A stretch of DNA of 64,000 nucleotides from Chiloscyllium plagiosum (taxonomy: Eukaryota): NCBI RefSeq assembly GCF_004010195.1, contig NC_057752.1, positions 2,393,334-2,457,333 on the forward strand, in the 5' to 3' direction. The number at the start of each line of letters is the position of its first letter. The first letter of the stretch is position 1. Shown in pieces: positions 9,251 to 49,590 of this stretch. Both the position numbers and the translations under genes were made by a program. Under the pieces are notes generated by a model. The model was not told the DNA's origin. It searched no databases and saw only the letters and a list, made by a program, of their open reading frames with translations.

Positions 9251-9469
9251 TGCATTTTTAGTAGGAACAATATATTTCAGGTGGTGGGGGTGGGAGGGGA
9301 GGTAATGAGGGAGTGGGAAAGAGGGCTGATCGATCGGGTGAGTCGTTTGGAGATACAAGGTTTTGTGATGGTTTCTCCAGTGACACATCATGGGAACTGC
9401 TCTCAGGAATGGGATTGTCCATTACAAACCATAATGAGAGCAGGAGTGGACTAACAGATCATTTCAATT

Positions 9470-9667
9470 AGAGTGGTGCTGGAAAAGCACAGCAGATCAG
9501 GCAGCATCCGAGGAGCAGGAAAATCGACGTTTCCGGCAAAAGCCCTTCATCAGGAATGACAGTATTGATTTTCCTGGATCTCAGATGCGGCCTGATCTGC
9601 TGCGCTTTTCCAGCACTACTCTAATCATGATTCTAATCTCCAGCATCTGCAGTCCTCACTTTCGCCG
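9470..9667. mobile_element. Palindromic non-autonomous PLE derivative with 14-bp TSD
   Basis: Inverted arms ~9467-9526 and ~9565-9625; TSD agatcattt(c/t)aatt at 9456-9469 and 9668-9681; arms resemble the tail of the PLE at 22650-22758. Confidence 0.8.
9526..9553 (-). ncRNA. Minimal type I hammerhead ribozyme motif; stem II closing pair mismatched
   Basis: Minus strand CUGAUGA-A-GGGC-UUUU-GCCG-GAAA-C-GUC. Confidence 0.6.
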
Positions 9668-10134
9668 AGATCATTTTAATTGCCCGCACCACTGCCTGCA
9701 TTCACAATGAGATGCTAATTCTGAATGTGAGCACCTGGCTAGTCTTTTCTCTTAAGAAAAAAGGGCTTATTTTTAATAGCTTAGCAGTAAAGGTTAACCA
9801 AAGCACCTGCTCTTGAGAAAGTGACTTGTGCATTTATCAAAGAGTCTCAGGATTGCTGATTACTCAGTATTGGAGGAACAGCTGCTCAGAGACAAGGCTG
9901 TGACAGCAGAAGAAACTTTTCCCAGGGAACCAGTGCAGAAGCTGTTTTTCTGACAACAATTCTAACCACTCCACACACCCCCATGGTTGGATCATGGGAT
10001 TCTGGAACTGTTCTCAAAATCACTGATGGCACCATGCCAGACTTTCGGACGTGGTATTCCGGTTGGAGTAGCTCACCATCACAATCCTCCTTTCTCGAGA
10101 GATTTTCCTGCAGCAACCAGATCAGGGATGCTAT

Positions 10135-10340
10135 GCCACACTGCTGGAGTGGCAGGGAGGGAATTGAACTCAGACCTTCTGATGTAGAGGTAGGGACAGT
10201 ACCACTGCACCATCACGATGAACCTGTGCTTATTCAACTTGTTCAACCATGTCACAACATGCTTCCAGTGCGGGTGGGACCTGAACCTAGGCCTCCAAGC
10301 CCAGAGGTAGGGACACTGCTACCTGACCATGAGACTCTTT
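10135..10340 (-). mobile_element. Two decayed tRNA-derived SINE heads
   Basis: Reverse complement reads tggtgcagtggtactgtccctacctct...gttcaattcc; similar heads at 14037-14130 and 44175-44270. Confidence 0.55.
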
Positions 10341-11302
10341 CCTCCTTTCTCTCTAGGGCTGGTCTAATTATTGGTGGTAGAGGATGGACCACTGGGGAGT
10401 CTAAATGTGTTTCTCATAGCAGGGCAGCTTATTGTATGGTAGCAGTAGGTACAGTTTACATTAACTTATGACACACTCTCAGGCACTGTACAAAAGACAT
10501 CTGCTTCTGTTCGATACTTGCACAGAGCTCAATTGTCCCGACCCCAGGACTGGGTGATAGCATCTGATTACGTGGAGCTCATTCTTAGAATCCCTACAGT
10601 GTGGAAGCAGGCCCTTCAGCCCAACAGGTCCATACCAACCCTCCGAAGAGTAACCCACCCAGACCCATTCCCCTACCCTATTATCCTATATTTAACCCTG
10701 ACTAATGCACCTAACCTACACAACCCTGAACACTATGGGCAATTTAGCATGACCGATCCACCCTAATCTGCACATCCCTGGGCACTATGGGGCAATTTAG
10801 CATGGCCAATCCACCCTAATCTGCACATCCCTGGACACTATGGGGCAATTTAGCATGGCCAATCCACCCTAATCTGCACATCCCTGGACACTATGGGACA
10901 ATTTAGTATGGCCAATCCATCTTAACCTGCACATCCCTGGGCACTATGGGACAATTTAGCATGGCCAATCCACCCTAACCTGCACATCCCTGGACACTAT
11001 GGGACAATTTAGCATTGCCAATCCACCCTAACCTGCACATCTCTGGGCACTATGGGGCAATTTAGCATGGCCAATCCACCCTAACCTGCACATCCCTGGG
11101 CACTGTGGGACAATTTAGCATGGCCAATCCATCCTAACCTGCACATTCCTGGGCACTATGGGACAATGTAGCATGGCCAATCCACCCTAACCTGCACATC
11201 CCTGGGCACTATGGGGCAATTTAGCATGGCCAATCCACCCTCGCCTGCACATCACTGGACACTATGGGCCAATTTAGCATGGCCAATCCACCCTAACCTG
11301 CT

Positions 11303-11645
11303 GACTGGGACAACACATCCATCCTAGGATACTAAGCAGAGACATGCACAAGAATTCCTAGAAGCATGGCATTCAAACTGGAATTCTGTCACCAAGCACA
11401 TCGACTTGGACCCCATTTACCACCTCTGAGAAAAGGGACAGGAAATGACATCAACACATGAAATGACATCACCAACCTAAACACACACATAAAAAGTGTG
11501 ACATAACCCAAGCATTTCACTGGAGGCTTACTGAAGATGTTACCTAGTACGGTGACAAAACGTCTGAAAATGAACCTTCCAGCTCAGTGAGCAAATCTAC
11601 ATCCAGAACCTCAACCTGAGCTACAAATCTTCTCAAAACTTACAA
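11303..11645 (+). mobile_element. PLE 3' fragment (ORF end and 3' region)
   Basis: DWDNTSILG../KQRHAQEFLEAWHSNWNSVTKHIDLDPIY resembles the C-terminus of a PLE GIY-YIG endonuclease; hammerhead motif follows. Confidence 0.75.
11528..11567 (+). ncRNA. Hammerhead ribozyme motif with G12>A decay
   Basis: uua-CUGAAGA-U-GUUACC-uaguac-GGUGAC-AAAA-C-GUC-uga. Confidence 0.55.
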
Positions 11646-12642
11646 ACTATGGGACAATTTAGCATGACCAGTCCACCCTAACTTGCACATCCCTGGACAT
11701 TATGGGACAACGTAGCATGGCCAATCCACCTAACATGTACATCCCTCGACACTATGGGTAATTTAGCATGGCCAATCCACCCTAACATGTACATCTCTCG
11801 ACACTATGGGTAATTTAGCATGGCCAATCCACCGTAACCTTCGCTGTGCTACCACTGGAGCGAAGGTCATCACTTTTGGGCACCATCTCACCTCCACCAA
11901 TGCACTCCCCACAATGAGTCTTTGCCAATGCCAGCAATGCTGCCAGGTTAAGGACTGGCCTTCCACTATGAGTCCGCTTCAGGCCTACCTCAGCTCTGCA
12001 GCAGCGGCCATGATTCAGCGCTAGGGCCTATGCAAGTCTGTGCTGGCCTCACTCACCGCCATTGATGCCATCACCAAGACTGAGCTCTTCAAAAAGTGGA
12101 AAGTAAAATAAAAAAGACTGAAAAGAATGAAAAACTGAGAAAGGAGAGAGAGAAAAAGGAAAAGAAAAGGAGAACGAGTGGACAAGCCCCAGGTTCAGAG
12201 ATCCTCATCCATCGTCACCACATGATGGAGGTTGTTCAGCCCCATCTTGTCTTTGGGCCTGAAACTACTCTCTTAAACTTACATAAAGGGACTTCCAAGG
12301 GCTTGAAGACAGAACTGGCAAAGGAGGACTGGGAAACTGGGTTAAAAGGTTAGAAGCAGAGTTAGACATTTAAGGTGAAATTTCTTAAGACATGTTTGAT
12401 TGAGAAAGAAAGCCTTCACAGGAAAGATGCAACATCTCTGGCTAATCAAGGAAATTCAGGAAATGTCAGATTGGCAATTGATAATTTGAGAAGCCAGCAA
12501 AGGATGACTGTTTCTGTGCTGTGACCTCTCCCAAACAGGTTCCTCCAAGATCAGTTGCGAATTTCACTGTTTGTTAATTTTCTCAGACACACTCCGATGT
12601 CCAGTGATACATGAATTCAAACAGCAAAGACAGTAACTGTGC

Positions 12643-12862
12643 AGATATAAAAGAGACCTAAGGGGCAACTTTTTCATGCAGACGGTGGTGCGTGTATGGA
12701 ATGAGCTGCTGCCAGAGGAAGTGGTGGAGGCTGGTACAATTACAATATTTAAAAGGCATTTGGATAGGTATATGAATAGAAAGGGTTTGGAGGGACATGG
12801 ACCGGGTGCTGGCAGGTGGGACTAGATTGGGTTGGGATATCTGGTCAGCATGGACAGGTTGG
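12643..12862 (+). mobile_element. CR1 LINE 3' end
   Basis: gatataaaagagacctaaggggcaacttttt...gggttgggatatctggtc. Confidence 0.85.
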
Positions 12863-13362
12863 NNNNNNNNNNNNNNNNNNNNNNNNNNNNNNNNNNNNNN
12901 NNNNNNNNNNNNNNNNNNNNNNNNNNNNNNNNNNNNNNNNNNNNNNNNNNNNNNNNNNNNNNNNNNNNNNNNNNNNNNNNNNNNNNNNNNNNNNNNNNNN
13001 NNNNNNNNNNNNNNNNNNNNNNNNNNNNNNNNNNNNNNNNNNNNNNNNNNNNNNNNNNNNNNNNNNNNNNNNNNNNNNNNNNNNNNNNNNNNNNNNNNNN
13101 NNNNNNNNNNNNNNNNNNNNNNNNNNNNNNNNNNNNNNNNNNNNNNNNNNNNNNNNNNNNNNNNNNNNNNNNNNNNNNNNNNNNNNNNNNNNNNNNNNNN
13201 NNNNNNNNNNNNNNNNNNNNNNNNNNNNNNNNNNNNNNNNNNNNNNNNNNNNNNNNNNNNNNNNNNNNNNNNNNNNNNNNNNNNNNNNNNNNNNNNNNNN
13301 NNNNNNNNNNNNNNNNNNNNNNNNNNNNNNNNNNNNNNNNNNNNNNNNNNNNNNNNNNNNNN
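12863..13362. other. Assembly gap (500 N)
   Basis: Run of N. Confidence 1.
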
Positions 13363-14164
13363 TGGTATAGAAAAGAAACTGTCCAGTATCTAAAGGGCAA
13401 AATATGTGAGTCCTGTGGGTCTTTGACGATGTCAGAAGGTTGCCAATCGCCCAAGAAGCATCATGCCCCAATGGCACACCGGCCTGGCACTCAAGTATGG
13501 TGCATCTGATATGCCCAGATGGCTGTGGGAGACCCACCTCCTGGAATCATCGAATCCCTACCATGTGGAAACAGGCCCTTCGGCCCAACAGGTTTTCCCC
13601 GACCCTCCAAAACGTAACCCACCCAGACCTATTCTTTACCCTTCCTGGGGAGTGGCAGAGTGGGATTTGGAAGTCTCCTGATTTCTCCAGACCCGGATTA
13701 TTTTTCTCTGCATCAAGTGCTACACTTGTTGCAATTGGGCCAGAGGCTGCAGTACACTTCTGTAAAACCATCCCCCTTTTTCATCGTGCATTCATTCCAC
13801 CAATGACAGTAGTGCCTTCAGCTCCCTGAATCCTGGAATTCCCTCCCTCAACCTTTCCGCTTCTTCCTTGCTCAAGCCATCGTTAAAAAACCCACCTTCC
13901 AGTTGGCGTTGTGGTGACCTACGAGACTTGAAATGAATTCTCATCTGATTCCACTCGGGACATTTCACCGCATTAATGTTGTTTCATCAAACGTCCTGCC
14001 TTCAATCTGTTTTAACAACAGGTACCGAGATGGGCGAGGGGTCCCTGTGGTGCTGTGGTAGTGTCCCTAGCTCTGGGCTAGATGTACTGGGTATAGGACC
14101 TATTGGCCCAGGACTGTACATTCACAATGTGGCCAAATAGATCAAATGCCAATCCTTCCAATAA

Positions 14165-16380
14165 ATCATAAAGGACAAAAGAGCAACTAGAGAGCAAATA
14201 AGGCCCCTTAAACATCAGCGAGGATGTCCTTCAGGTGGCACAGTGGCTCAGTGGTTAACACTGCTGCCTCACAGTGTCAGGGACCCGAGTTTGATTCCAG
14301 CCTCGGGCAACTGTCTGTGTTGAGTTTGCGTATTCTCCCTGTGTCTGTGTGGGTTTCCTCCGGGTGCTCCAACTTCCTCCCATAGTCCAAAGATGTGCAG
14401 GTCAGGTGAATTGGCCATGCTGAAATTGCCCATAGTGTTAGATGCATTAGTCAGAGTGAAATGGGTCTGGGTGGGTTACTCTTCGGAGGGTCGGTGTGGA
14501 CTTGTTGGGCCAAAGGGCATGTTCCACACTGTAGGGAATCTAACCTAATCTATGTGTGGAGCCACAGGAGATGGGTGAGATTCTAAATGAATATTTCACG
14601 TCAGTATTTATTGTGTGGAAAGACATGGAAACTAGGGAACTTGGGTAAATAAACAGTGATGTCTTGAAAACAGTCCACATTATAGAAGAGGGGCTGCTGG
14701 AGGTCTTAAAATCTATGAAGGTAAATAAATCCCTGGGACTTAGTCAGGTGTATCCCAGGACATTGTGGGAAGCTAGGGAAGAGATTGCAGGGCCTCTAGC
14801 TGAGAAATTTGTATCATCCACAGCCACAGGTAAGGTGCCAGAAGACTGGAGGGTGGCTAATATTATACCTTTATTTAAGAAAGACTGTAGGGAAAAGCCC
14901 AGGAACCGGTGAGTCTGACATCAGTGTGTATAGTTGTTGGAGGGGATTCTGAGAGACAGGATCAACATGCATTTGGAGAGGCAAGGACCGATTAGGGATA
15001 GTCAACATGGCTTTGTGCCTTCCACCAGGTTCCACATGGTAGATTCGTTAGTAAAATTAGATCACATGGGATCCAGGGAGAGATAGCCAATTGGATACAA
15101 AATTGGCTGGATGGTAATAGACAGAGGGTGGTTGTAGAGGGGTGTTATTTGGACTGGAGGCTTGTGACTCGTGGTGCTAGGTTCAAATGTGTTTCTCATT
15201 TATCCGAATGATTTGGATGAGAATATACAAGGCATGGTTAGTAAGTTTGCAGATGAGACCAAAATTGGTGGCATAGTGGACAGTGAAGAAGGTTACCTCA
15301 GAGTACAACAGGGATCTTGATCAGATGGGCCAAGGAGTGGCAGATGGAGTTTAATTTAGATAAATGCAAGGGGTTGCATTTTGGGAAGGCAAGCCAGAGC
15401 AGGCCTTATACCGTTCATGGTAGGGTCCTGGGTAGTGTTGTTCTGCAAAGGGACCTGGGGTTCAGGTACATAATTCTTTGAACGTGGCACCACAGGTAGA
15501 CAGGATAATGAAGAAGGTGTTTGGCATGTTTGCTTTCATTGGTCAGAACATTGAATATAGGAGTTGGGATGTCACGTTGCAGTTGTACAGGTTGTTGGTT
15601 AGGCTGCTTTTGGAATACTGTGTTTAATTCTGGTCACCCTGCTAAAGGAAGGATATTATTAAATTGGAAAGGGTGCAGAAAAGATTTACAAGGATGTTAC
15701 TGGAACTGGAGAGGAGGTTATAAGGAGAGACTGGATAGGCTGGGACTTGTTTTCCCCGGACGGTTGAGGGGTGACCTTACAGAGGTTTAAAAAATCATGA
15801 GGGGCATAGATAAGGTGAATAGCGAAGTTCTTTACCCCAGGGTAGGAGAATTCAAAATTTGTGGGCATAGTTTTAGGATGTGAGGGGCAATATTTAAAAG
15901 GGACCTGAGGGGGAATGTTTTCTCACAGAGGGTGGTTCGTGTATGAAATGCACTGACAGAGGAAGTGGTGGACACAGGTACGGTTACAATAGTTAAAAGA
16001 CATTTGGACAGGTACATAAATAGGAACACTTTAGAGGGATATGGTGTAAACACAGGCAACTGCATAGGGTGCACAACCAAGGTCTTTTCTCCAGGGTAGG
16101 AGAATCCAAAACTCAAGGGCATAGCTTTAAAGTGAGATTTAAAAGGAACCAAAGGGGAGACTTTTTCACGCAGAGCGTGGTGCGTGTATGGAATGAGCTG
16201 CCAGAGGAAGTGGTGGAGGCTGGTACAATGACAACATTTAAAAGGCATCTGGATGGGTATATGAATAGGAAGGGTTTATGGGTCAAATACTGGCAAATAG
16301 GACTAGATGAATTTAGGATATCTGGTCGCATGGATGTGTTAGACCGAAGGGTCTGTTTCCATGACGTGTGACTCTATGAC
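14165..16380 (+). mobile_element. Long decayed CR1 ORF2 with an HE1 insertion and two consecutive 3' ends
   Basis: VYPRTLWEAREEIAGPL, SQHGF, SKFADETKIGG and EYCV motifs; terminal segment occurs at ~15790-16060 and again at ~16065-16380. Confidence 0.88.
14233..14552 (+). mobile_element. HE1-type V-SINE, near full length
   Basis: tRNA head, V-domain gtgtctgtgtgggtttcctccgggtgctcc, CR1-like tail. Confidence 0.9.
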
Positions 16381-16532
16381 TTGCTAAACATGAATGGAAA
16401 TACCACTATTGGCAGTTTTGGAAGTGGAGATTGGAGAAAAGACAGATAAATAGGTACAGAACACTGCAAACGCTTGGTGAATTCACGAGCACAAAATGTT
16501 GAAGTACTCCTGTGGCATTATCTCAAATAACT

Positions 16533-16885
16533 CATAGAATCCCGACAGTGTGGAAACAGGCCCTTCAGCCCAACAAGTCCACACTGACCCTCTGAAGAGT
16601 ATCCCACCCAGACCCATTCCCCTACCCTATTGCTCTACATTTACCCTTGACTAAGGCACCTAACCTGCATATCCCTGAACACTATGGGCAATTTAGCATG
16701 GCCAATCCACCTAACCTGCACATCCTTGGATTGTGGGAGGAAACCGGAGCATCCGGAGGAAACCCACGCAGACACGGGGGAGAACGTGCAAACTCTACAC
16801 AGACTGTTACCCGAGGCTGAAATCAAACCAGGGTCCCTGGTGCTGTCAGGCAGCAGTGCTAACCATTGAGCCACTGTGCCACCCC
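16533..16885 (-). mobile_element. HE1-type V-SINE, full length
   Basis: tRNA head, V-domain and tail shared with CR1. Confidence 0.9.
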
Positions 16886-17450: not shown

Positions 17451-17454
17451 AAGA

Positions 17455-18340
17455 GGTATATAATGAGTATTTTGCATCCGTGGTTATTAAACAGAAGGGC
17501 GATTGAGGGGAGTTGGTTGCTGAAGTGGTTGTGACAGAGATGAGCAAGATTGTGATGGATAATAGGAACATCACGGCTCAGTTAGTTATTCAAAAGGAAA
17601 ATAATTTATCAGGCTCCCCCCTCCCCCCCCCCCAACCCTCCTCAACCCCCGCTACAGAATAACCTTGAATTCTGGGAGAGATGAGGAAGGAAATTACCAA
17701 GGTCCTCACTGCAATTTCAGGAGTGTGAATATGTGTCAGCGGACTGGGGAAAAGCCAATGGAATGCCCATTTTTATGAAGGTAGGGAGGGTTGAATCAAG
17801 AATTTATGGGCCAGCTAGCTTAACATCTGTGCTCAGTGAAATGTTCGATCCTTTAATTAGGAATGAAATGAGCATGTATCTAAATAAAGAGAAAATAGTG
17901 AGCCTGCGTGGATTTCAAAAGGATGCTTCAGCATGAATTCTTCAGGAGGCTTCAGCATGGGAGATGGGCAATTTGCAGTGAATAGAGTGGACAAAGGTCT
18001 CTGAAAATGTACCACCCAGGAGATTATCAAAGATTCAGGACTATGGATGAGGAAAAGGATAGCAAGTTGGATTGGAAATTGGTTCAAAGGGCAAAAGTGG
18101 GGATGAGGAGTCGTGGAGAGCTTTTCAGAGTATGACAAAACATTTACAGCACAAAAGAAGACAATTTAGCATAACAGATTCATGCTGCTGTCAATGTTCC
18201 AAACTAGGACTGTGTGATGAGCTGATATAAAAGGCAGTGGTCTGTACAGTGTTGGGTTTCATACTGTAGGAAGGACACTGAGGCTTCAGAGAGGGGACAA
18301 CACTGGATTCACTGGAATGCTGCCCAGAAACATAACTACA
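17455..18340 (+). mobile_element. Ancient, highly decayed CR1 ORF2
   Basis: DWGKANGMPIFMK...YGPASLTSVLSEMF resembles DW..ANV.PIFKK...YRPVSLTSV. Confidence 0.65.
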
Positions 18341-18349
18341 AAGAAACAT

Positions 18350-18445
18350 CAGCAACAGAAGTGAAATACAGGTCAGGCAGCATCTGTGGTGAGAAAAACA
18401 GTTAATGTTTCAGATGACTGACCTTTCGTTAAAACTGGGCAGTGT
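18350..18445 (-). mobile_element. Decayed PLE tail remnant
   Basis: caggtcaggcagcatctgtgg...gttaatgtttc resembles the other PLE tails. Confidence 0.45.
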
Positions 18446-20380: not shown

Positions 20381-21240
20381 GAGACAAGAAGGAATTTCTC
20401 TTACTCAGAGGGTTGTGACCCTTTGGAATTCTCTACCCCAGAGGCCTATGGAAACTCAGTCTTTGAGTCGGGTTAAGGCCTTCCCAAGTCTTCATGGCCT
20501 TCTTTTCGCTCAGTGCCCTGATCCCTCACTGCTTACTGTTCCCTGTGACAAGTGGGAGGAAGACCACGAGGGATTGCTCCCTTGTTGGCATCAAGGGAGA
20601 CAACAAAGTCAAGCAGGGCACTGAGTGGGGCACCCAAACGAGGGTGGCAAGGGTCCTTCAAGTCCCCAGTGCCACGGGTGGAGTGGGCGCTGACTTCAGG
20701 TTCCAGGCGCAGATTGATGACATCATCGGCGCCAGCTTCCAGTTCCAATGCAGTGCAGAAGGTACAGTGCTTTGAAATATGTTTTCACACTTACAGACGG
20801 GACTTCGAAAGTATGGTGTACTCCTCAGCAGTTCAGGCAATATGTGTTTCCAGCAACATACTTCTTCAACAGCCTTTGTCAATCTGGCCGCTCCTTTGTT
20901 CAACAATTCCCTGTAGGAATTCACGTAATTATAATCGGTGTCAGAAAGAATCATGGTCGGCATGGACTGGTTGGACCGAAGGATCTGTTTCTGTGCTGTT
21001 TGACTCCCTGACGCTATAACTATTTCTCTCTCCACACTGGAGTTTCTCCAGCATTTACTGTGTTTGTTTCCGATTTCCAACATCTGCAAGAAGTTGCCTT
21101 TACTAGGGGCCTGAATAGCTCCCCATTTGCACTTCATCATTGGGAAGCAAAAACTGCCAAATGCATTTCTTAAACTCTTTGCCAGAAATCTTAGTGATTG
21201 GGTTATGCTGCATGGAGAGATGTCCCTCTTTATTGACATG

Positions 21241-21490
21241 GAGACAGTGAGGTTTGCTGATGCTGGAGATCAGAGTTGAGAGTGTGTTGCTGGAAAAACA
21301 GGTCAGGCAGCATCCGAGGAACAGGAAAATCAACCTTTCATGCTGGAAAAACACAGCAGGTCAGGCAGCATCCGAGGAACAGGAAAATCGACCTTTCATT
21401 CCTGATGAAGGGCTCTGGTCCAAAACGTCGATTTTCCTGCTCCTCGCATGCTACGTGATCTGCTGTGCTTTTTCAGCAACACACTCTCAA
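21241..21490. mobile_element. Palindromic PLE derivative with internal tandem duplication and 15-bp TSD
   Basis: TSD ctctttattgacatg at 21226-21240 and 21491-21505; decayed hammerhead CUGAUGA-A-GGGC-ucug-GUCC-AAAACGUC at 21402-21429 (+). Confidence 0.8.
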
Positions 21491-21604
21491 CTCTTTATTG
21501 ACATGCCACATTTTCCATTCAAAAAAGCTGAGTGTCGCATTCTGGCATCGCACTGGGCGGCCGTGTCACTTTAAGAGTGGGATTACTAGGCATCGAGAAG
21601 ACAA

Positions 21605-22758
21605 TCACCACTCCCCACCTCTTCCTCCGCTACATTGATGACTGCAATTGGCGCCACCTCATGCTCCCGCGATGAGGTTGAGCAATTCATCAACTTCACC
21701 AACACATTCCACCCTGACCTTAAATTTACCTGGACCATCTCTGACACCTCCCTCCCCTTCCTGGACCTCTCCATCTCCATTAATGACGACCGACTTGACA
21801 CTGACNNNNNNNNNNNNNNNNNNNNNNNNNNNNNNNNNNNNNNNNNNNNNNNNNNNNNNNNNNNNNNNNNNNNNNNNNNNNNNNNNNNNNNNNNNNNNNN
21901 NNNNNNNNNNNNNNNNNNNNNNNNNNNNNNNNNNNNNNNNNNNNNNNNNNNNNNNNNNNNNNNNNNNNNNNNNNNNNNNNNNNNNNNNNNNNNNNNNNNN
22001 NNNNNNNNNNNNNNNNNNNNNNNNNNNNNNNNNNNNNNNNNNNNNNNNNNNNNNNNNNNNNNNNNNNNNNNNNNNNNNNNNNNNNNNNNNNNNNNNNNNN
22101 NNNNNNNNNNNNNNNNNNNNNNNNNNNNNNNNNNNNNNNNNNNNNNNNNNNNNNNNNNNNNNNNNNNNNNNNNNNNNNNNNNNNNNNNNNNNNNNNNNNN
22201 NNNNNNNNNNNNNNNNNNNNNNNNNNNNNNNNNNNNNNNNNNNNNNNNNNNNNNNNNNNNNNNNNNNNNNNNNNNNNNNNNNNNNNNNNNNNNNNNNNNN
22301 NNNNNNNNNNNNNNNNNNNNNNNNNNNNNNNNNNNNNNNNNNNNNNNNNNNNNNNNNNNNNNNNNNNNNNNNNNNNNNNNNNNNNNNNNNNNNNNNNNNN
22401 NNNNNNNNNNNNNNNNNNNNNNNNNNNNNNNNNNNNNNNNNNNNNNNNNNNNNNNNNNNNNNNNNNNNNNNNNNNNNNNNNNNNNNNNNNNNNNNNNNNN
22501 CTCCTTTTCCACCTATCCACTCCATCCTCTCCTCCCTGACCTATCACCTTCATCTCCTCCCCCACTCACCCATTGTACTCTATGCTACTTTCTCTCCACC
22601 CCCACCCTCCTCTAGCTTATCTCTCCACGCTTCAGGCTCTCTGCCTTTATTCCGAAACGTCGATTTCGAAGCTCCTCGGATGCTGCCTGAATTGCTGTTC
22701 TCTTCCAGCACCACTGATCCAGAAGCTGGTTTCCAGCATCTGCAGTTATTGTTTTTAC
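21605..22758 (+). mobile_element. PLE, 5'-truncated (RT core and 3' tail), 14-bp TSD; spans a gap
   Basis: FLRYIDD (YIDD at 21631-21642), frameshift, then IGATSCSRDEVEQFINFTNTFHPDLKFT...LPFLDL; TSD catcgagaagacaa at 21591-21604 and 22759-22772. Confidence 0.9.
21806..22500. other. Assembly gap
   Basis: Run of N. Confidence 1.
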
Positions 22759-23864
22759 CATCGAGAAGACAACAGCTGAGCTGCCCAAGTTGGACTTGAT
22801 GTTCATTACAGAAGTGGAAATGTTCCACAAATGAGGGCCAACTTTAGCAGTGACACTCCATAGGGCTTTCGTCAGTTTCCTGTGAGATTTGTGGGTTTTG
22901 CTTCCTTGTAGGATTCACTTGGTAGCGAAACTCGCGAGGTACCTGCCGAGCGGCAAATCAGGCCGGGATGTGTCGTCAGAGCGGGAGATATCCGCTTGTG
23001 AGCCCACTTTCGCGCCGCTGCCCATTTTCTGTGCCCCAGTCGATTTGGCCAAAAGCGAGCGGAGGCGCAGACCATCCTTATCGGCTGTGCTCACACAGTG
23101 AAACAAACAAGGCTTTTGTGATCGCACGGGAATCAGTTTCGAGGAGAAATCAGATCCAGTTATTAGAAGCAGAAGAACAAAAGCATTCTTCAGATCCCGT
23201 GCCAGAATATTGGGATGTGGTGAAAGGAAAGTGTTTCCTTTTGTTTTTCCTGGAAAAGAGCTACTGGGGGAAGAGAGAAAAAAAACCCGCCTATTTAGTG
23301 AGTTTCTTGCATAATCACCTCTGAGATTGATTTGAAGATAAATTATTTCCAGTCACTAAAAAGCAACGTGCTTGCATATATAGAGCCTCTGACTGCAGTC
23401 TCAAATGCTCCCCGTATTGGCGGACAAACATGGCAGCCATCCCATGGCAACACAGGCTGCTTATCGAAGACCAAGTAAATCTGGCTTTTGAGGGTCGGTC
23501 CAAGGACGAATCTTGGCTGGAACACTGAGAGACATCCTTTGCTTCCAGCCGGGCTGTAGTTGTTTTTTTTAAACGTAGGATATGATCTCCGTTTAACACC
23601 TCATCTGAATAAACAGGAGGTTTGGGTTACCCTGAATAGGTATGCAACTTCATCTCGCTCACCACCAAATGAATGCTCCGTTGACACAATTGAATTCAAT
23701 GCCTTGATCTCGTTGGTTGAGTGCACGTAAAACGTCAAAGTGTTAAATAACATCAAGCAATAAGCTCTGTCCATCAGGAATCGTAGAGGTCTCCAGCACA
23801 GAAAAAGGCCCTTCACTCCATCGAGTCTGCGCCAGTCAAAAACAACCACCTGGCTATTCCACTC

Positions 23865-24150: not shown

Positions 24151-24366
24151 TTGGCCCTTTTAGCCCTAATAGCCAAGGGCACATCGAAATCCTGCTTCAA
24201 TGTGGTGAGGGTATCTGCTTCTCCCATCCTGACAGGAGACTGGTGCTGAGTTTATCCCGAGAGTCACCCACTCTTTAGGCGAGGGGAAGAGGTTGAGGAG
24301 ACTCCTTCATGGTAACCTCAGCTGACAAGGGAGTTGGACCCATGCTGTTGGCATCATTCACCAGCT

Positions 24367-24482
24367 TCTGGATCAGTGGTGCTGGAAGAGCACAGCAATT
24401 CAGGCAGCATCCAAGGAGCTTCAAAATCGACGTTTCAGGCAAAAGCCCTTCATCAGGAATCCTCGTTTTACCTCGTTTTTAC
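24367..24482 (-). mobile_element. PLE derivative, one arm nearly deleted, 15-bp TSD
   Basis: TSD catcattcaccagct at 24352-24366 and 24483-24497; arm is the reverse complement of 22655-22725; ends gtttttac like the PLE at 22751-22758. Confidence 0.8.
24429..24456 (-). ncRNA. Minimal hammerhead ribozyme motif with intact core
   Basis: Minus strand CUGAUGA-A-GGGC-UUUU-GCCU-GAAA-C-GUC; palindromic ACGU at stem III; stem I very short. Confidence 0.65.
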
Positions 24483-24537
24483 CATCATTCACCAGCTGTC
24501 CAGCTAATTGAGCACGCAGATGTAACGGAACTGGCTA

Positions 24538-26135: not shown

Positions 26136-26199
26136 TGCACAAAAAGCTATCCCAGAGAGAGAAAGAAAAGATGGTAAATCTTGGGAACAAGTGTGAAGT

Positions 26200-26365
26200 A
26201 AACACAGAGAATGCTGGAGAAACTCAGCAGGGCTGGCTGCCTCTGTAGTGAGAGAAAACCTTTCGAGTCTTATAGAACTTAAACATTAACTCTGTCTCTC
26301 TCCACAGACTTGCTAAGTTTCTCCAGCAATTCTCTGTTTGCTTTAGATTTCTAGTAATTTGCCTC
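26200..26365. mobile_element. Older palindromic PLE-derived remnant
   Basis: aaacacagagaatgctggagaaactcagca pairs with tgctaagtttctccagcaattctctgttt as inverted arms. Confidence 0.5.
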
Positions 26366-34239: not shown

Positions 34240-34820
34240 ACCTCATACTAACCTGAATACTAACACTACCCAGGTAGTCTTCTGGGTACTTAAGTTCAAA
34301 TCCCGTCCATGGCAAATCCATCTGGTTCAAAAGGCATTTGGATGGGTATATGAATAGGAAGGGTTTGGAGGGATATGGGCCAAGTGCTGGCAGGTGGGAC
34401 TAGATTGGGTTGGGATATCTGGTCGGCATAAACGGGTTGGACCGAAGGGTCTGTTTCCATGCTGTACATCTCTATGACTAATGTCCTGCAGGAAAGGAAA
34501 TCTGCCAATCTCACCTGGTCTGGTCTAATGTGACTCCAGACCCACAGCAATGTGGTTGACTCTCAACTGCCCTCTGAAATAGTCACTCAGTGCTACCAAT
34601 CGCTACAAAGTCTCAAAGAAATGAAATTGGAGGATCATCTGGCATCAACATTGGCACCGGTACAGCCCTGTCAACCCAGCAAAGTCCTCCTCACCAACAG
34701 CTGGGGGCTGGTGCCAAAATTAGGAGAGCTGTCTCATAACCTGCTCAGTGATGCCCAATTTGGGTTCTGCCAGGGCCACTGAGCTCCTGACCTCATTACA
34801 GCCAATTTTCAAACATGGTT
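34240..34820 (+). mobile_element. tRNA-headed, internally deleted copy of the second LINE family, interrupted by a CR1 3' end (34330-34477)
   Basis: B box gttcaaatcc; body shared with the SINE at 43505; then KVLLTNSWGLVPKLGELSH joined to NLLSDAQFGF, matching 55730-55810. Confidence 0.7.
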
Positions 34821-35275
34821 AGAGACAAAAAAATTGCAGATGCTGGAATCCAAGGTAGACTTATTATTCCAGCCTCCTACCTTGGCTCAAAGATGGACAA
34901 AAAAGCTGATTTCCAGCGGGGATAGGTGAATACAGGGAGACAGTACGACCTGGTTGGTCAACGGGAGGAATGAATCTAATTGGTGGCAGGGAGGTGGTGG
35001 GGCCTGGGAAGGGAGTCGGGGATGGAAAGGGAGAATATTTGAAATCTGACTCCCTTCCCAGCCTCTCCCCCTTCCTGCCACCAACCAGATTCATTCCTCC
35101 CATTGACCAACCAGGTCGTACCCTCTGCCTTCTTCACCTATCCCCATTTCTTCACCCTGCCCCTGCCACCCCCTTTATCTGCAGTTCGCCCCACACCCAC
35201 CCCCAGACATCTCCACTTCCTGATGCTGCCTGGCTTGCTGTGTTCTTCCAGCCTCCTGCCTGCCTCGTAGTCTGA
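34820..35275. mobile_element. PLE remnant with internal inverted repeat
   Basis: ~34918-35030 is the reverse complement of ~35048-35145; PLE-type tail gatgctgcctggcttgctgtgttcttccagc. Confidence 0.65.
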
Positions 35276-35518: not shown

Positions 35519-35624
35519 AAAAGAATGATTTTAAACAAATGTTTATAATGGGACTATCTGAAGGCGAAGAACTGAGAGAATTTCATTGGGCTGGTCTATG
35601 TTGAGAGCACCCCACCCCCATTTC

Positions 35625-38857: not shown

Positions 38858-39485
38858 TTGGCTCAGTGGTTAGCACTGCTGCCTCACAGTGCCAGGGACT
38901 CAGGTTCGATTCCAGCCACGGGTGACTGCCTGTGTGTGGAGTTTGCACATTTTCCACGTGTCTGTATGGGTTTGCTCTAGTTTCCTCCCACAGTCGAGGG
39001 ATATGCAGGGTAGGGTGGATTGGCCATGCTAAATTGCCCCATAGTGCCCAGGGATGTGCAGGTTAGGGTGGATTGGCCATGCTAAATTGTCCCACAGTGC
39101 CCAGGGATGTGCAGGTTGGAGTGGATTGGCCATGCTAAATTGCCCCATAGTGCCCAGGGATGTGTAGGCTAGGGTGGATTGGCCATGCTAAATTGTCCCA
39201 TAGTGCCCAGGGATATGCAGGGTAGGGTGGATTGGCCATGATAAATTGCCCCATAGTGTCCAGGGATGTGCAGGTTAGGGTGGATTAGCCATGCTAAATT
39301 ATCCCATAGTGTCCAGGGATGTGCAGGTTAGGGTGGATTGGCCATGCTAACTTGTCCCATACTGTCCAGGGATGTGCGGATTAGGGTGGGTTAGCATTGG
39401 GGAATGTGGGGTTACAGGTGCAAGGTGGAGGATAGGTTGCTCTATGGTGGGCCAGTATGGGCTTCCTTCCTCACTGTAGGGATTC
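38858..39485 (+). mobile_element. HE1-type V-SINE with ~7.5 tandem 53-bp units
   Basis: tRNA head at 38860, V-domain, units starting 39005, 39058 ... 39376, then tail. Confidence 0.9.
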
Positions 39486-41220: not shown

Positions 41221-41267
41221 GCCCGATATTGCTCCTTTTTATAGCTTTCATCAGATGTGGGTGTCAC

Positions 41268-41945: not shown

Positions 41946-41949
41946 AATT

Positions 41950-42255
41950 AATTGCCACTTAAACCAAGAGGCTTGCTCAACCATCTTAAACGGTGCATCA
42001 ACCTTATTGCTGTGGGTCTGGAGGTAAAGAGTCTGGAGTCACATGTAGGCCAGACCGGGTAAGGACGGCAGATTTCTTTCCCTAAAGGACATTAGTGAAC
42101 CAAATGGGATTTTACAACAATCGATGATTGTTATCATGGTTACCATCACCAACATGGTTGTGTACTGGCCTTACATTCCAGATTTATGTATTGCATTTAA
42201 ATTCCACCGGATACCTCGGTGGGATTTGAACCTATGTGCCTGGAGCATTAGCCAG
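41950..42255 (-). mobile_element. tRNA-derived SINE of the second-LINE system; its tail (41235-41270) is separated by the Rex1/Babar insertion
   Basis: Reverse complement of the body at 43640-43760; B box rc ggatttgaacc. Confidence 0.7.
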
Positions 42256-42554
42256 TCAGGTGAGAATGGGTGGAATTTTCCCATTTTCAGTTACCATGTT
42301 TATTTTGTGTGATTTATGGCTGGTTCTGCCTTGACTTGGAGCATGTTCTCTCTCTGAATCTCCCATTCTTCACCGCATTCGTTCTGCAAGCCGGGTCTTT
42401 CCCAGGGAATGGTGCAGTCAGAGAGGTGGAAGTAGTCATTCCTTCCAGAATCTTCTGTTTAAGGTCCGGCTTCCGAAGCTGCGAGCCAGGAACTGAGTCC
42501 CTTAACATTCGGCACAAGGCCCAGAGCAAAGGAAAGCTCGCTCTGTGCTTCATA

Positions 42555-42945
42555 TTCCCTCCACCACTGATGCTCAGTAGCAGCAGCGTGTGCTATCTAC
42601 AAGATGCCCTGCAGAAATTCACCAAAGATCCTCAGACAGCATCTTCCAAACTCACGCCCACTCCCACCTAGAAAGACAAGGGCAGCAGATACTTGGGAAC
42701 ACCACCCCCTGCAAGTTCTCCTCCAAACCACTCACCATCCTGATTTGGAAATATATCGCTGTTCCTTCACTGTCGCTGGGTCAAAATCCTGGAATTTTCT
42801 TCCTAAGGGCATTGTGGGTCTACATACAGGACATGAACTGCAGCGGTTCAGGAGGCAGTTCACCCCCACCTTCTCAAGGGGCAGCTAGGGACGGGGCAAT
42901 AAATGCTGGGCCCAGCCAGTGATTCTCATATCCCGTGAGTGAATT
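42555..42945 (+). mobile_element. Second LINE family, 3' end
   Basis: Same ORF end and tail as 37365-37710. Confidence 0.85.
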
Positions 42946-43504
42946 TAATAGATGCACCTCCCCCCAAAGCCAATGGACCCTTCCTGAGGCAGAGTGCTCA
43001 AAAATTAACACAACATTCCCACTCGGGACTAGACCAAAGCCCTGTGCACTAAATAAAACCCCAAATCGTTACAATCTCTATCAGCAACAGCACCTTGAGT
43101 TAAAATGGACTTGCTCCAGTTGCAAGGAATGGCTCCAAGCCGGCAATTGGCAGCTTGCCAACAAGCCTCATTGCATTAGCAAGAGACTGCATGTCCTTTC
43201 GGAAACAATTCCAAGCAATTAAGGGATTCCTGCAGAAACTGTCGGACAAGCTCACCATGGAGCATCGGAAAATTCAATTGCAATTTTCTTTCTTAAACTC
43301 CCACAGATGGGTCAAAGGGTCTGAATGCGTTCAGGCCGTATTTTGGCCCCCAGAGCTGCAGGAGACCGAATTGTTAGCTGTTTCATAAGGGGATGGTTCT
43401 GAAAGGGTTAACCTTGGAGATTGTATCAGTCGGAAGATTTTTGTTAATTCATGCATGGGGCGTGGGTGACACTGAACGAGCCTCCATCTTAAATGTTTGG
43501 TGCA

Positions 43505-43795
43505 GGGGAGGTGATGGCCGAGTGGTATTATCACTGGATTGTTAATGCTGGGACCCAAGTTCAAATCTGGCCATGGTAGATGGTGAAATTTTAATACCAG
43601 AAATATCTAGAATTAAGACTCTAATGGTGATGGTGAATCTATTGTTGGGGAAAACCCCATCTGCCTCACTGATGTCCTTTAGGGAAGGAAACTGCCGTCT
43701 TCACCTGGTCTGGCCTACATGTGACTTTAGACCCACAGCAATGTGGTTGACGCTTAAGTGGCCAGCGGTGCCCTCATCTTGTGAATAAATAAAGG
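43505..43795 (+). mobile_element. tRNA-derived SINE with tail of the second LINE family
   Basis: A box tggccgagtgg at 43515-43525; B box gttcaaatc at 43559-43567; tail gccagcggtgccctcatcttgtgaataaat. Confidence 0.8.
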
Positions 43796-44659
43796 AAAAC
43801 AAAAAGCACGGTGCTATTACAGAGGGAATTTCAGGATTTTGACCCAGCCACACTGAAGGAACGGCATTATATTTCCAAGTCAGGATATTTCAGAAGGGAT
43901 CTTGCAGGAGGGTGGTGTTTCCGTATGTTCGGTGCTGTCACACGGTCCACAGGGTGGAGAGGAGGCTTTCTGGATTCCAAATGGAGACAAATGTGTCTTT
44001 TCTGGTTCCTGTGGTCTTCATCGAGCCAAAGTAGTCCGATTAACTTGCACCCATCGCTGTCGTGCAACAAATGACATTAAATGTTGAGGCAAGTATCTGT
44101 TCTCATTAAGAGCCAATGATAGTCCAACCCCCTAATGCTGTCAATCAGACAGGACCACATAGTCAGCACAAGAAAGGTGCTCTGGTGGTGCAGTGATAGT
44201 GTCCCTAGCTCTGAGCCAGAAGTTCTGGGTCCATTCTCAGCTACCCCAGAGGAGTATCATGACATGTCTGGATGGCTTCCAGAATTTCTACAGCACAGAA
44301 GAAGGCCCATTCAGCCCCTTGTGTCTGCATTGATTCTATTCCCTTGTGCCAATCTCCTGCCTTTTCCCCATATCCCCGCACCGCATTTCTATCCAAGTTA
44401 CTGTCCAAAGCCCAAGGTAAGCCGGGTACTGACCTTGCTCTGAGTCTGAGCGAGTGTGATTGTTAACAAGTGACTAGCTCCCTGCTCCCACGTCTGTGAC
44501 ACTTCAGCCTGTCTGAGCTGTTTACAGAGCACACAACGAGTGTCACCATGACAAAAGCAGGAGTGATTTGTTCCTGCTATATTTTTATACCGTTACTCTA
44601 TTTACAAGTTATAAATAGGTCCCTCGAGATGTAGTGCATTCACCCCAGAAGGTGCGCAT

Positions 44660-46770
44660 TCATCAAGTCACATCAGTTGTCAGAAAAATCCTGAAAACTA
44701 TTATTATCAAAGTTTTAAGAATAGACTCCAAAAATTGTACTGTGACTGTACAAAGTCAGCTTGGTTTGATGAAAGGGAAAATGGCATTTGGCGAATTTGT
44801 TAAGAGGCTTTCTAACAAGGGTAAATGAAGAGGGGGGAATGTAGTTTACATGTATTTCCAAAAGGCATTCAATAAAACATGCCTCACAAAATGTTAACAC
44901 ACAAGACAAAGGATTGGGTAATGGGTAGGAAGCAGCAAATTGATTAAATGTGGCATTGTCAAATTAGTAATCTAAGATTACAAAGAGATCTTGATCAATT
45001 GGGTCAATGGGCTGAGGAGTGGCAGGTGGAGTTTAATTTGGATAAATGCGAGGTGTTGTATTTTGGTAAAACATACAAAGGCAAGACTTATATAATTAAA
45101 AGTAGGGCCTTGGGTTGTAGAACAGAAAGACCGAGGTACATAATTCTTTGACGTTTGTATCACGTTTGACAGGGTGGCTAAGAAGGCATTTACCACACTT
45201 GCCTTCATTACTTGGTATCGGAGTTGGGACGTCATGCTGAGGTTGTACAGGATGTTGGTGAGGCCTCTTCTGGGGTACTGTGTCCAGTTCTGGTCACCCA
45301 GTTATAGGAAGGATATTATTAAGCTAGAGAGGATTCAGAAGAGATTTACCAGGATGTTGCCGGGAATGAAGAGTTTGAGTTATAAGGAGAGGCTGGATAG
45401 GCTGGGACCTTTTTCCCTGGAGTGTTGGAGGTTAAGGGGTGACCTTATAGAGGTTTATAAAATCATGACGCTTATAGATAAAGTGAATGGCAGGTGTCTT
45501 TTCCCTAGGGTGGGGGATTTCAAGACAAGGGGACATATTTTTAAGGTGAGAGGAGAAAGATTTAAAAAAGACATGAGGGGCATTTTGTTTACACAGAGAG
45601 TGGTTCATGTGTGGAATGAACTTCCTGAGGAAGTGGTGGATGTGGGTACAGTTACAATGTTTAAAAGACATTTGGATAAATACATGAACAGGAAATTTTG
45701 GAAGGATATGGGCCAGGAGCAGGCAGGTGGGACTAGTTCAGTTTGGGATTATGTTCGGCATGGACTAGTTGGACCGAAAGGTCTGTTTCCGTGCTGTATG
45801 ACTCCATGACTCTCTGGTGGAGAGTGTGGCAAGGATCACTGCTGGGTTTTAGATACTTACAACCGATATGAAGAACTTTGATGAGGAGTCAGAAAGGAAT
45901 GTATCAAAGTTTGCTGATGGTGGAAAACTGGGTGGGAATGTAAGCTGGACACAGAAATGGCAAAGTGAGATCCAGTCAGGTGAAAGTGAGTGGGCAGCAA
46001 GGGAGTATAATGTGGGGAAATGTGAGGTTATTCAGTTTGTTTGTGAGAATGGAATAACAGAATATTTTTTAAAAGGCATGCAAGTTGTAAAAGAGGGACT
46101 TGTGCAAGGGCTACAAAGTTAGCAAGCAGGTGCAGCAAGCATTGAGGCAGGCTGGCCTTGATTATAGGGATCGGAGGAACAGAATAAAGGAGTTTAGCTA
46201 CACATGTAAAGGGCTTTGGTTATTGTGTGCGTGCCTTGGCTACTGTGCACAGTTTTAATCTCCATATTTAAGGAAGGATGTACTTATATCAGAGATGGTA
46301 AAGCAAAGGGTCACCAGATTGATCCCTGGGGTGAGTGGCTTATCCTTTGATGAGAGACCGAGTAAATCGGGGTGATATTCTCTGGAGTTTAGAAGAATGA
46401 GAGGAAATCTCATTGAGACAGACACAGTTCTGAAGGGTTTCTTGACAGGGGTCAATGCTGAGAGATTGTTTCCCCCTCTGACTGCAAGAAGGGTGGCACA
46501 GTCTGAGGATAAAAGGCTGATCATTTGGAACTGAGATTACTAGATATTGCTTCCCTTTGGGTGGGGGGAGTGAATCTTTGGAATTCTCTCCCCCAGCGGG
46601 CTGTGAATGATCACACATTGAATATATTTAAGGCTGGGGAGAGACAGCTTTTTGGTCTCTTGAGGAATAGTAGGCTATGGGGAGTGGAAGGGAAAATGGA
46701 GGCCAAGGTCAGCCATGATTATATGGAATGGGCGAGCAGGCTTGATGGGCCGAACGTCCCACCCTTCCTA
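44660..46770 (+). mobile_element. Old CR1 copy containing a younger CR1 3' fragment (~44965-45812)
   Basis: TSVVRKILKTII..QSQLGLMKGK; ORF 45174..45809; SKFADGGKLGG resumes after the insert. Confidence 0.85.
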
Positions 46771-48264
46771 TTTCTTCTCGCACTTTACATTCTTAAGCCA
46801 CTATCTAGTGGCAAAACAGTGAGCGGAATGGGATCCTAAATGTGCTCATTTTTAATTGTGAAGTCAACAAGAGCCCATAACATCCACTGAATGTGATGAC
46901 CTTAACTTTGCTTGCGCCTATCAGACACCACAGGGAGCGATTGCCGTTCCGGTGTGTGTGCTGGCTGGAGTTTGCTGTTGAGGGTTCAAGTGAAGTACAT
47001 CCAATCTTGCAGAATGACTTCTTCAAAGTGTTTTCTACTTTCAGGATTGGACAGGTATAAGATATCAGTGTGTTGCAGTTTTGATCTTTTCAACTCGATG
47101 GGGAGAATAGTTCTGCAGATCCAAGTAAGTCAGTATGCATTGGGATTCAGAGGAATGCTTAATCCCAAAGTAAGTATTGATAGCACCGTCATGAGTTGGT
47201 AAAGGCCAAACGTTATAGCAAACCTCAGAGCCATCACGAAACAAAGTCTACTTAGCCAGAGTCGACACAAACGCCAGTAAACTGAGCTCGCTACCGGGAC
47301 AACAGCAGCATTTTCCTGATTAAAAGCATCATTCTTCCTGAAGTGGAGAACAGTTGTATTCGACAAGATGTCACTCAGGAAACCAATCCTTGCTGCCTAA
47401 TGGACAGCAGAATGAACCAATCCTCTCCATTCCAGCCAGGATTGCGATGTCACTGTCTGTAACCTTCATTTGTTTTGTTTCCGTAGGGAAAGTTACCAAA
47501 GATTTCAACTCCCTGATCTATCTGGCCAACCCTTTCATGTGCTGGTTTCAAAGCTATTGGAAATGATTTCAAGAACTGGCTATTACGGCGGAAGATTCTA
47601 TCAATGAATGAACCCGTTTGTTGGTTCAACCTCTTCTCTGAGTAGTAAGCATGACTACTTGGTTGTAATTGCTGTCTCGGTGTAAAATTTGAATTGTCCA
47701 TGTAATCCTAAAGGCCTATTGTCTGGCCAGGACATGCTGTCCCAGGTTATTGTGCACACCAAAGCCCTCTTTCAGTTCAGTCAAGATCCAAGTCCGATTT
47801 TCTGGCCTGGGATGTCTTATCGTCGAGGAACTGAATAGAGACATCATCGCAGAAAAATGCCTCAATTCAAGAGATGTAACAAATGAAAGCTCTTGTCTTC
47901 CTACTTTCTCTCATCGCTTCCCCCCCACCCCCCAAAAGGCTCAGGGAGACACCAAAAGCATTGAGCCACAGCAAAAATGGACACTGACTTTCATCCTGCA
48001 CACCCACATCCTTAACTACCCCCCCACCCCTAGAAGACCCCTGTTCCCGATTGAACAATGCCTCAATTTTAAATTCTCAGCCGTGCTTTCAAACCCTTCC
48101 AGGGCCTCTCGACCCTCCCCTGATTTCAATTGGCCTGTAACGAGGTGACTGGGCCTTCAGCTGACAAAGCCCAAAGTCAGAGCTTCTCTGTCTGTCCACC
48201 TCTTCTCTCACAATATTCATTAAGAACTCACCTCTTTGACTAAGTGTTTGCAGCTGGTGCAAGT

Positions 48265-48545
48265 TGAATCCAGTGATTAAATCTGGATTATAAAAGAAAA
48301 GGCTCCTCTCAGTGATGGTGACCATGGCAAGTATCATCAATTGTCATAAAAATCTATCCGGTTCAGTAATATCCTTTCAAGAGGAAAATCCAACTGTCCT
48401 TACCTGGTCTGGCCTACACGTGACTCCAGACCCACAATAATATGGATGACTCTCAACTGCCCTCTGAAATGGCCTAGAAGGGCACTCGGCTCAAAGGGCA
48501 ATTTAAGATGGGCAACAAATGCTGGTGTTGGCAGCAATGCTCATG
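48265..48545 (+). mobile_element. SINE of the second-LINE system, head truncated
   Basis: ccttacctggtctggcctac..gtgactccagacccaca joined to aagggcaatt..gatgggcaacaaatgctgg tail. Confidence 0.75.
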
Positions 48546-48549
48546 GAGA

Positions 48550-49590
48550 AAATGGGGCAAACTCCTGGCAGGTGCAACACAACATGGTGAGATGGGAAGT
48601 TATACACATCAGTGTGAAAAACAGAAAGCCACAGTATTATTTAAATGGTGATCTACTGGGAAGTGTGGGTGTACAGAGAGATCTGGGTATCCTTGTGCAG
48701 CAGACAATTAAAATAGAAAGGCAGCTGCAGTCAGCAATTAAAAATGTAAATAGTATATTGGCCTTCATTGCAAGAGGATTTGAGTTCAGACGTAAGGATG
48801 TCTTACTGCAGTTATGCAGGGCCTTAGTGAGACTACACACGGGTCATTAGTTTGGGGCTCCCTACCTACGAAAGGATATCCTTGCCATAAAGGGAGTGCA
48901 TTGGAGAACCACTAGGCTGGTACCGCGGATGGCAGGACTGACCTATGAGGAGAGATTGGTTTGACTGGGCCTATATTCGCTAGAGTTTAGAAGGATGAGA
49001 GGGGTTCTGATTGAAATGTGTAAAATTCTAACAGAATCTGGAAAGACCAGATGGAATGAGGATGTTTCTCCTCCTTAGGGAGTCTAGAACCAGGGTCATA
49101 GTGTCAGGAAACAGTGTAGCCCTTTAGGACGGAGGTGAGGAAACATTTCTTCACTCAGAGGGTTTTCACCATGTGAAATTCTCTAACAAAAGGCTGTGGA
49201 AGCCAAGTCACTGAATATATTCAGGAACGAGGTAGATACATTTTTAGATTTTAAAGACATCAAGGGGTATGGGGAGAAAGTGGGAATGTGGTATGGAGAT
49301 ACAGGATCAGTCATTAATCCTGTTGAATGGTGGAACAGACTTGAGGGGCAGAATAGATTAGAGTGATGCTGGAAAAGCACAGCAGGTCAGGCAGCATCCG
49401 AGGAGCAGGAAAATCGATGTTTCGGGCAAAAATCCCGAAACATTGATTTTCCTGCTGCTCGGATGCTGCCTGACCTGCTGTGCTTTTCCAGCACCACTCT
49501 CATCTTGACTCTAACCTTCAGCATCTGTAGTACCCACCTCCGCCTAGTTGAGGGGCAGCATAGCCAACTCCTGCTGTTCATTTCTATGTT
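48550..49590 (+). mobile_element. CR1 LINE 3' fragment with a PLE derivative in its 3' UTR
   Basis: ORF 48446..48850 carries VQRDLGILV..LAFIARG. Confidence 0.85.
49357..49547. mobile_element. Palindromic PLE derivative with 16-bp TSD
   Basis: 70-bp arms 49357-49426 and 49434-49503; TSD ttgaggggcag(a/c)atag at 49341-49356 and 49548-49563. Confidence 0.85.

Follow-up and report, generated by a model that had tools for sequence, protein, structure and literature searches.

In a 64,000-nucleotide stretch of the Chiloscyllium plagiosum genome (contig NC_057752.1, positions 2,393,334 to 2,457,333 of assembly GCF_004010195.1; hereafter the window) we analyzed four short insertions derived from the 3' ends of Penelope-like elements (PLEs), located at 9470-9667 (e1), 21241-21490 (e2), 24367-24482 (e3) and 49357-49547 (e4). 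Our analysis gives good grounds to believe that they are PLE stubs from three subfamilies, each made independently by priming of both target strands and by head-to-head joining of the products near a hammerhead ribozyme motif. They are likely to be an ordinary outcome of PLE insertion and not a new self-spreading element, and their mirror shape most likely arose afresh with each insertion. The original prediction, made from the letters of the window, had instead described a family of palindromes resembling miniature inverted-repeat transposable elements (MITEs), mobilized in trans and descended from a parent with two back-to-back hammerheads, or else a form generated repeatedly by fold-back during reverse transcription.

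Four inserts derived from PLE 3' ends

The four insertions were confirmed as real inserts bounded by target site duplications (TSDs), each with its own duplication of 14 bp in e1 (one mismatch), 15 bp in e2 and in e3 (both exact) and 16 bp in e4 (one mismatch). The TSD sequences were unrelated between sites, and the consistency of their length, proposed as a check on the original prediction, held in 4/4 inserts. For random 30-by-30 flank pairs drawn within the window, an exact repeat reached 9 bp or more in 16 of 3000 pairs, 11 bp or more in 6 and 14 bp or more in 4.

PLE 3'-end sequence was the source of all four inserts. They had been attributed to the 3' tail of the PLE bearing a reverse transcriptase (RT) fragment at 21605-22758, or to a close relative; the general origin stood, and only e3 was close to that PLE end (96% identity over 77 bp, the other arms showing 80-87%). 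Read in the orientation of the element, an inverted arm comes first and meets a direct arm at the junction, both being enclosed by the two TSD copies, and the tail is one-sided: the inverted arm is without the last 45, 35 and 44 bp of the direct arm in e1, e2 and e4, respectively, and in e3 it ends 35 bp short of the PLE end. In e1-e3 the tail-less arm crosses the hammerhead core and extends 4-10 nt beyond it on the upstream side. The direct arm begins ahead of the predicted cut, by 0-4 nt in e1, 2-3 nt in e2 and about 11 nt in e4, and the two arms of e4 meet inside hammerhead helix II.

The e1 insert, of subfamily A1, lies between TSD copies at 9456-9469 and 9668-9681. Its tail-less arm of the pseudo-long terminal repeat (pLTR; 9470-9562, minus strand) ends 4-9 nt upstream of the sole hammerhead core (9526-9553), and the start of its direct arm (9563-9667, plus strand), which carries the tail at 9623-9667, coincides with the predicted scissile site at 9567 or precedes it by 4 nt. 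The e2 element, of subfamily A2, lies on the minus strand between TSD copies at 21226-21240 and 21491-21505; the tail-bearing arm (21241-21391, minus strand) contains the tail at 21241-21275 together with a tandem duplication, internal to the arm and about 58 bp long, and the inverted tail-less arm (21392-21490, plus strand) contains the sole core at 21402-21429 and ends about 10 nt upstream of it. In e3, of subfamily B and flanked by TSD copies at 24352-24366 and 24483-24497, the inverted tail-less arm (24367-24460, minus strand; core at 24429-24456, arm end 4 nt upstream) is joined to a direct part of 22 nt (24461-24482, plus strand) formed by two imperfect repeats that resemble the tail end. 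The body of e4, again of subfamily A1 and on the plus strand, consists of an inverted arm (49357-49429) and a direct arm with its tail (49432-49547), between TSD copies at 49341-49356 and 49548-49563. The direct arms of e4 and e1 maintain an open frame of 28 codons from an ATG through the tail end (49463-49546 and 9585-9667), as expected if the pLTR and the tail form the start of an open reading frame (ORF); this frame had no match among 52 comparison proteins.

The palindromic form attributed to all four inserts was found in three of them. The best 40-nt self-complement reached 36 in e1, 35 in e2 and 39 in e4, as compared with 27 or less in 100 shuffles of e1, and it was 23 in e3 (shuffle mean 22.6), which is therefore not a palindrome. 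The junctions of e1, e2 and e4 are located at or within the hammerhead motif. The CUGANGA sequence occurred once in each of e1, e2 and e3, and on neither strand of e4. Hence two cores were present in 0/4 inserts and the postulated back-to-back parent was not sustained, each insert having one damaged core or none. In the three core-bearing inserts the core sits on the tail-less arm, and in the three palindromes the direct arm is without it. Following the hammerhead numbering of PMC4209133, the damage consists of a G-G at pair 10.1-11.1 (broken) in e1, G12A in e2 and a G-U wobble at 10.1-11.1 in e3. An active ribozyme is expected to combine an intact core, including G10.1-C11.1, with a partner copy for dimer cleavage, a combination that none of the four inserts presents.

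A motif-descriptor search recovered hammerhead matches in e1-e3, and an Rfam scan of the window reported no hammerhead family at E values up to 1 (16 matches, hairpin matches only below the gathering score). An exact 23-nt motif search gave 0 matches in metagenome and viral contigs. Of note, the core is gone from longer PLE ends (at 22653 and about 35200) as well as from the direct arms, which suggests that it is prone to deletion.

Subfamilies, junctions and inversion centres

Over a 58-column core alignment, e3 showed 3 differences with respect to the neighbouring PLE end and 12-19 with respect to the seven arms of e1, e2 and e4. Three subfamilies were thus distinguished, A1 (e1 and e4), A2 (e2) and B (e3 and the neighbouring PLE), e3 being closer to the ORF-bearing PLE than to the other three inserts. 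A marker of e2 is present on both of its arms and absent from e1 and e4, and one variant is common to both arms of e1. At the junction between the inverted arm and the target, the last bases of the TSD match the continuing pLTR over 3 bp in e1, 4 bp in e2, 7 bp in e3 and 2 bp in e4; the probability of this sum of 16 under a geometric null was 1e-7 to 1.5e-6. Such microhomology at the inverted-arm ends fits separate priming at each site, on a template running on towards the tail.

Descent from a single master copy predicts shared ends and a shared junction, and with n=4 we found three subfamilies and four different left ends and junctions. Nor did the inserts show what is expected of a MITE, terminal inverted repeats that are symmetric and a short, fixed TSD, given the unpaired 35-45 bp tail at one end and the 14-16 bp TSDs. 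The junctions of e1 and e2 lie about 1 nt apart despite their different subfamilies, and from the sequences we read this shared position as a recurrent breakpoint.

Inversion centres elsewhere were mixed. Another PLE family provided an inverted insertion at 34818-35267 (minus strand), with a one-sided tail, a rearranged tail-side arm, no hammerhead core and no TSD found; its centre, at 35031, is displaced upstream by about 150 bp from the position equivalent to the hammerhead, implying that the hammerhead is not always the inversion centre in the window. The idea that every symmetry centre coincides with the hammerhead holds for the junctions of e1, e2 and e4, e3 having no palindrome, and fails for this fifth insertion. 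The strongest Rfam hairpin matches of the window also fall in 34818-35267.

A degenerate core pattern retrieved at least 121 metagenome loci, of which 102 were evaluable after dropping duplicates and short flanks; the following figures refer to the loci listed. Homology to shark PLE proteins was detected by tblastn in 24 of the 121; the 53-aa RT fragment of the neighbouring PLE had no tblastn match in them, and longer relatives did match. An inverted arm reaching the hammerhead arm was present in 25 of the 102 loci, with centres at -35 to +5 of C3 in 16 and at -54 to -227 in 9. The scatter of inversion centres, suggested beforehand as a means of refutation, therefore gave a divided answer: 16/25 centres were near the core and 9/25 further upstream, the same families (F1, F2, F5 and F7) each yielding ribozyme-proximal and distant centres. 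A binomial test against uniform centres gave P values of 6e-9 to 3e-7, which overstate the clustering, given a bias towards short products and the selection of loci by their hammerhead. TSD candidates were found in 7 of the 25 inverted loci and in none of the other 18. Five of these candidates, of 12-15 bp, belonged to loci whose tails were one-sided and 42-55 bp long and whose centres lay at -9.5, -13, -16, -143.5 and -225, with microhomologies of 3, 2, 2, 3 and 0; the 8-9 bp candidates of L060 and L080 were dropped as likely due to chance. Together, these results indicate that clustering of junctions at the ribozyme is real and general, yet not family-defining. Two of the loci, L016 and L019, contain true back-to-back double cores with two intact pattern matches each. 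Both of them and L036, all from other PLE families, are TSD-bounded inserts of 237-259 bp with back-to-back hammerhead motifs and 52-55 bp tails.

Sequencing data were aligned over 22501-22800 at 80% likeness, yielding 16,822, 14,453 and 20,509 contigs from three DNA runs of two organisms and 1,085 raw RNA reads, the latter from a poly(A) single-cell short-read library that is unable to map 5' ends; contig depths do not equal copy numbers and were not used as such. Among the rows listed, loose ends before 22652 (180, 129 and 173 contigs, and 127 reads) keep the hammerhead up to helix I and then continue, in all four runs, into four differing consensus strings of low agreement, which match no single junction and do not clearly correspond to the PLE body. 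Behind 22714, the loose ends (385, 349 and 311 contigs; agreement of 0.42-0.43) pass into unrelated DNA, the behaviour expected of tail-less arms. The hammerhead is intact in the consensus of the aligned reads and contigs, and among the rows listed no position accumulated read ends. Raw reads covered the body at a depth of 61-65, the sequence next to the core at 177-209 and the arm at 733-875, values that sum several subfamilies and, being RNA depth, do not equal copy number.

Proposed origin of the inserts and alternative explanations

We propose that, at a single target site with both strands nicked, the PLE enzyme would prime complementary DNA (cDNA) from each of them. By analogy with PAc, a Poseidon element from Anolis carolinensis in which both target strands are cut and extended and RT starts at two sites bounding the tail (PMC11167929), one strand may prime at the tail end and the other, with the help of microhomology, 30-45 nt further inside, where a second start site would lie; two start sites separated by this distance would produce the one-sided tail. 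Both cDNAs would tend to end around the hammerhead, the candidate causes being the template's 5' end, stalling of RT at the helices, or cleavage, and the self-complementary helices could supply the short overlap that joins them, as e4, joined inside helix II, would exemplify. The direct part of e3 is likely the result of an aborted, slipped first-strand synthesis, and the stubs are predicted to be dead ends.

Several points weigh against this independent, two-strand origin. The start sites of PAc were reported as non-homologous to the cut DNA, as opposed to the microhomology seen here, and the accessible part of that report does not demonstrate two-sided priming into one palindromic insertion (PMC11167929). 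Judging from the alignment, an arm may be closer to that of another insert than to its own partner, the inverted arm of e1 differing from that of e4 at 2/58 columns and from its own direct arm at 7/58, and the agreement within about 1 nt of the e1 and e2 junctions would be equally expected from a shared parent. The sample comprises only four inserts from this window; an intact hammerhead was the criterion for selecting the metagenome loci, so that centres downstream of the core are invisible, and the single opposite-strand joint among the rows listed is too few to give a genome-wide distribution of centres.

A discrete non-autonomous palindrome with two back-to-back hammerheads, mobilized in trans and losing central pieces in its later copies, would explain why the centres lie at the hammerhead in 4/4 inserts and why the e1 and e2 junctions are nearly the same. 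Double cores of this kind do exist in other families, as in L016 and L019, and pLTRs alone were reported as sufficient for trans-mobilization in a rotifer (PMC3846280, in its accessible part). We nevertheless consider this parent highly improbable, since the inserts belong to three subfamilies, with the e2 marker on both of its arms, none of them contains two cores, e3 is nearer to the ORF-bearing PLE, each left end shows target-specific microhomology, the aligned reads lack a single upstream consensus, and four PLE families give both proximal and distant centres. The three subfamilies, the single cores, the microhomology and the mixed centres elsewhere thus leave the MITE-like double-hammerhead family unsupported. 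Improbable as well is that one cDNA folded back at the hammerhead hairpin and self-primed the second arm, despite the 9-bp hairpin that 21392-21411 would form in a predicted fold, the centre of e4 at helix II, and the published proposal of self-priming at inverted PLE junctions (PMC3846280). If the tail-primed strand folded back, the core would come to lie on the tail-bearing arm, whereas it was observed on the other arm in 3/3 cases; if the other strand did so, it would be unable to supply the tail, and in e3 the inverted arm is whole while a direct arm is nearly absent. The ribozyme retained on the tail-less arm makes simple fold-back insufficient as an explanation, so that the anticipated repeated generation during reverse transcription was broadly supported, though not by this route.

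Cleavage by the ribozyme at the predicted cut, as the cause of the direct-arm starts, would be a variant of independent two-strand priming and not an exclusive alternative. This possibility is doubtful. The direct arms of e1 and e2 begin within 4 nt of the cut and the core is absent from the direct arm in the three palindromes; however, the direct arm of e4 starts about 11 nt upstream, no loose end at 22662 appeared among the 24 rows listed (883 further rows), and PAc ribozyme mutants insert normally in vitro, with no RNA-sequencing reads beginning or ending at the PAc cut site in the accessible part of the report (PMC11167929). Only tentatively, the ribozyme cut site could mark where the tail-primed cDNA ends, and the 5' edge of helix I where the second one does, in which case the ribozyme would set the template ends and their joining. 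A transcription start at the edge of helix I was also considered and set aside as unsupported by the layout of Drosophila virilis Penelope, in which, according to the accessible parts of the reports, transcription starts 46 bp before a 75-bp intron (PMC2377424) whose end maps to helix I (PMC4209133).

Neighbouring repeats and relation to known PLE systems

The neighbouring PLE is a 5'-truncated copy on the plus strand (21591-22772 including its exact 14-bp TSDs), composed of an RT fragment (21605-21805), a gap of N (21806-22500) and a subfamily B tail extending to 22758; 695 of its 1154 bases are N, and it has a frameshift near 21646. Its hammerhead carries a 19-bp deletion near 22653, and reads show the 19 missing bases. 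The RT fragment shares 92% identity across 53 aa with a protein of Chiloscyllium punctatum that has RVT_1 and a DKG motif, and a Pfam scan of this 53-aa fragment in the right frame gave no family. A relative, P0004 (85% over the RT fragment), has a GIY-YIG-like C-terminus, judged by eye, and a Neptune-type CX4CXXC linker between the RT and the endonuclease (EN), both in regions that read as N in the copy of the window, and the shark relatives have a Neptune-like appearance. A tract of pyrimidines with CAG at its end (22615-22636), located 18 nt upstream of the hammerhead position, is reminiscent of a 3' splice site.

The window also contains, at 11303-11645 (plus strand), the non-inverted 3' end of another PLE family with a degenerate ORF remnant, where a hammerhead-like core with a longer helix II (11531-11564) adjoins the end of a 53-bp tandem array. 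Older PLE-like 3'-end remnants occur at 26170-26306 (which looks head-to-head), 18320-18430 (minus strand) and 21020-21090 (plus strand). A 350-bp inverted repeat (54944-55292 and 55988-56337; 96.6% identity, 696 bp spacing) lies inside sequence that we take to be similar to long interspersed nuclear elements, and tandem arrays with 53-bp and 14-bp periods are found at 5460-5710, 10631-11372, 38944-39448 and 61697-62400.

The form with an inverted arm and a tail is already published as the usual PLE insertion structure: in endonuclease-containing (EN+) PLEs, the accessible parts of the reports describe an insertion unit with an inverted 5'-truncated copy, the pLTR and a one-sided tail of 30-40 bp (PMC3846280, PMC8557442, PMC8969392). 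The four inserts are likely new examples of this known product, as they combine a PLE 3'-end origin, an inverted arm with a one-sided tail, a TSD and a minimal hammerhead in the pLTR. Their head-to-head arms, junction palindrome, one-ended tail, TSDs and pLTR hammerhead are shared with the EN+ units, and they differ in being the shortest form, with no ORF body, and in their TSDs of 14-16 bp, as compared with 8-10 bp in rotifer copies; in their accessible parts, the published descriptions do not tie the junction to the hammerhead (PMC3846280, PMC8557442). PAc shows the cutting and extension of both strands and the two RT starts bounding the tail that we propose for the shark inserts, and like them has a hammerhead near the ORF start, whereas it was studied in vitro, belongs to the Poseidon clade and has non-homologous starts, the linker of the shark relative P0004 being of the Neptune type (PMC11167929).

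The hammerhead itself resembles the minimal type I motifs of metazoan PLEs (CUGAUGA, one extra base, a 4-bp helix II, GAAAC-GUC and no helix III). In the available text of their description, which does not cover sharks, these are mostly single dispersed motifs, with opposite-strand pairs 100-700 bp apart mentioned; the cores of the shark inserts, in contrast, are single and damaged (PMC4209133). Non-LTR retrozymes are likewise non-coding, derived from PLE pLTRs and endowed with a type I hammerhead, but they are described, in the accessible part of the preprint, as head-to-tail tandems with a core per unit (bioRxiv 10.64898/2026.07.22.740005). The shark inserts have head-to-head arms with one core or none, and the internal duplication of e2 excludes the core, which sets them apart from retrozymes. 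Our literature search, which did not extend to Repbase, Dfam, subscription papers and supplements, found no description of hammerhead-centred palindromic shark stubs or of hammerhead junction clustering.

In summary, the inserts are mostly ordinary, and their remaining value lies in the non-random position of their junctions. The function of the hammerhead in EN+ PLEs has been called unclear (Craig et al. 2021, PMC8557442, in its accessible part). If the ribozyme does set the ends of the template, the junctions would represent a genomic footprint of PLE hammerhead action in vivo, and the thousands of shark copies would make hammerhead function in PLEs testable by counting junctions. The copies in this genome (14,453-20,509 contigs per DNA run) are numerous enough to test whether cDNA synthesis stops at the cut site or at the edge of helix I.

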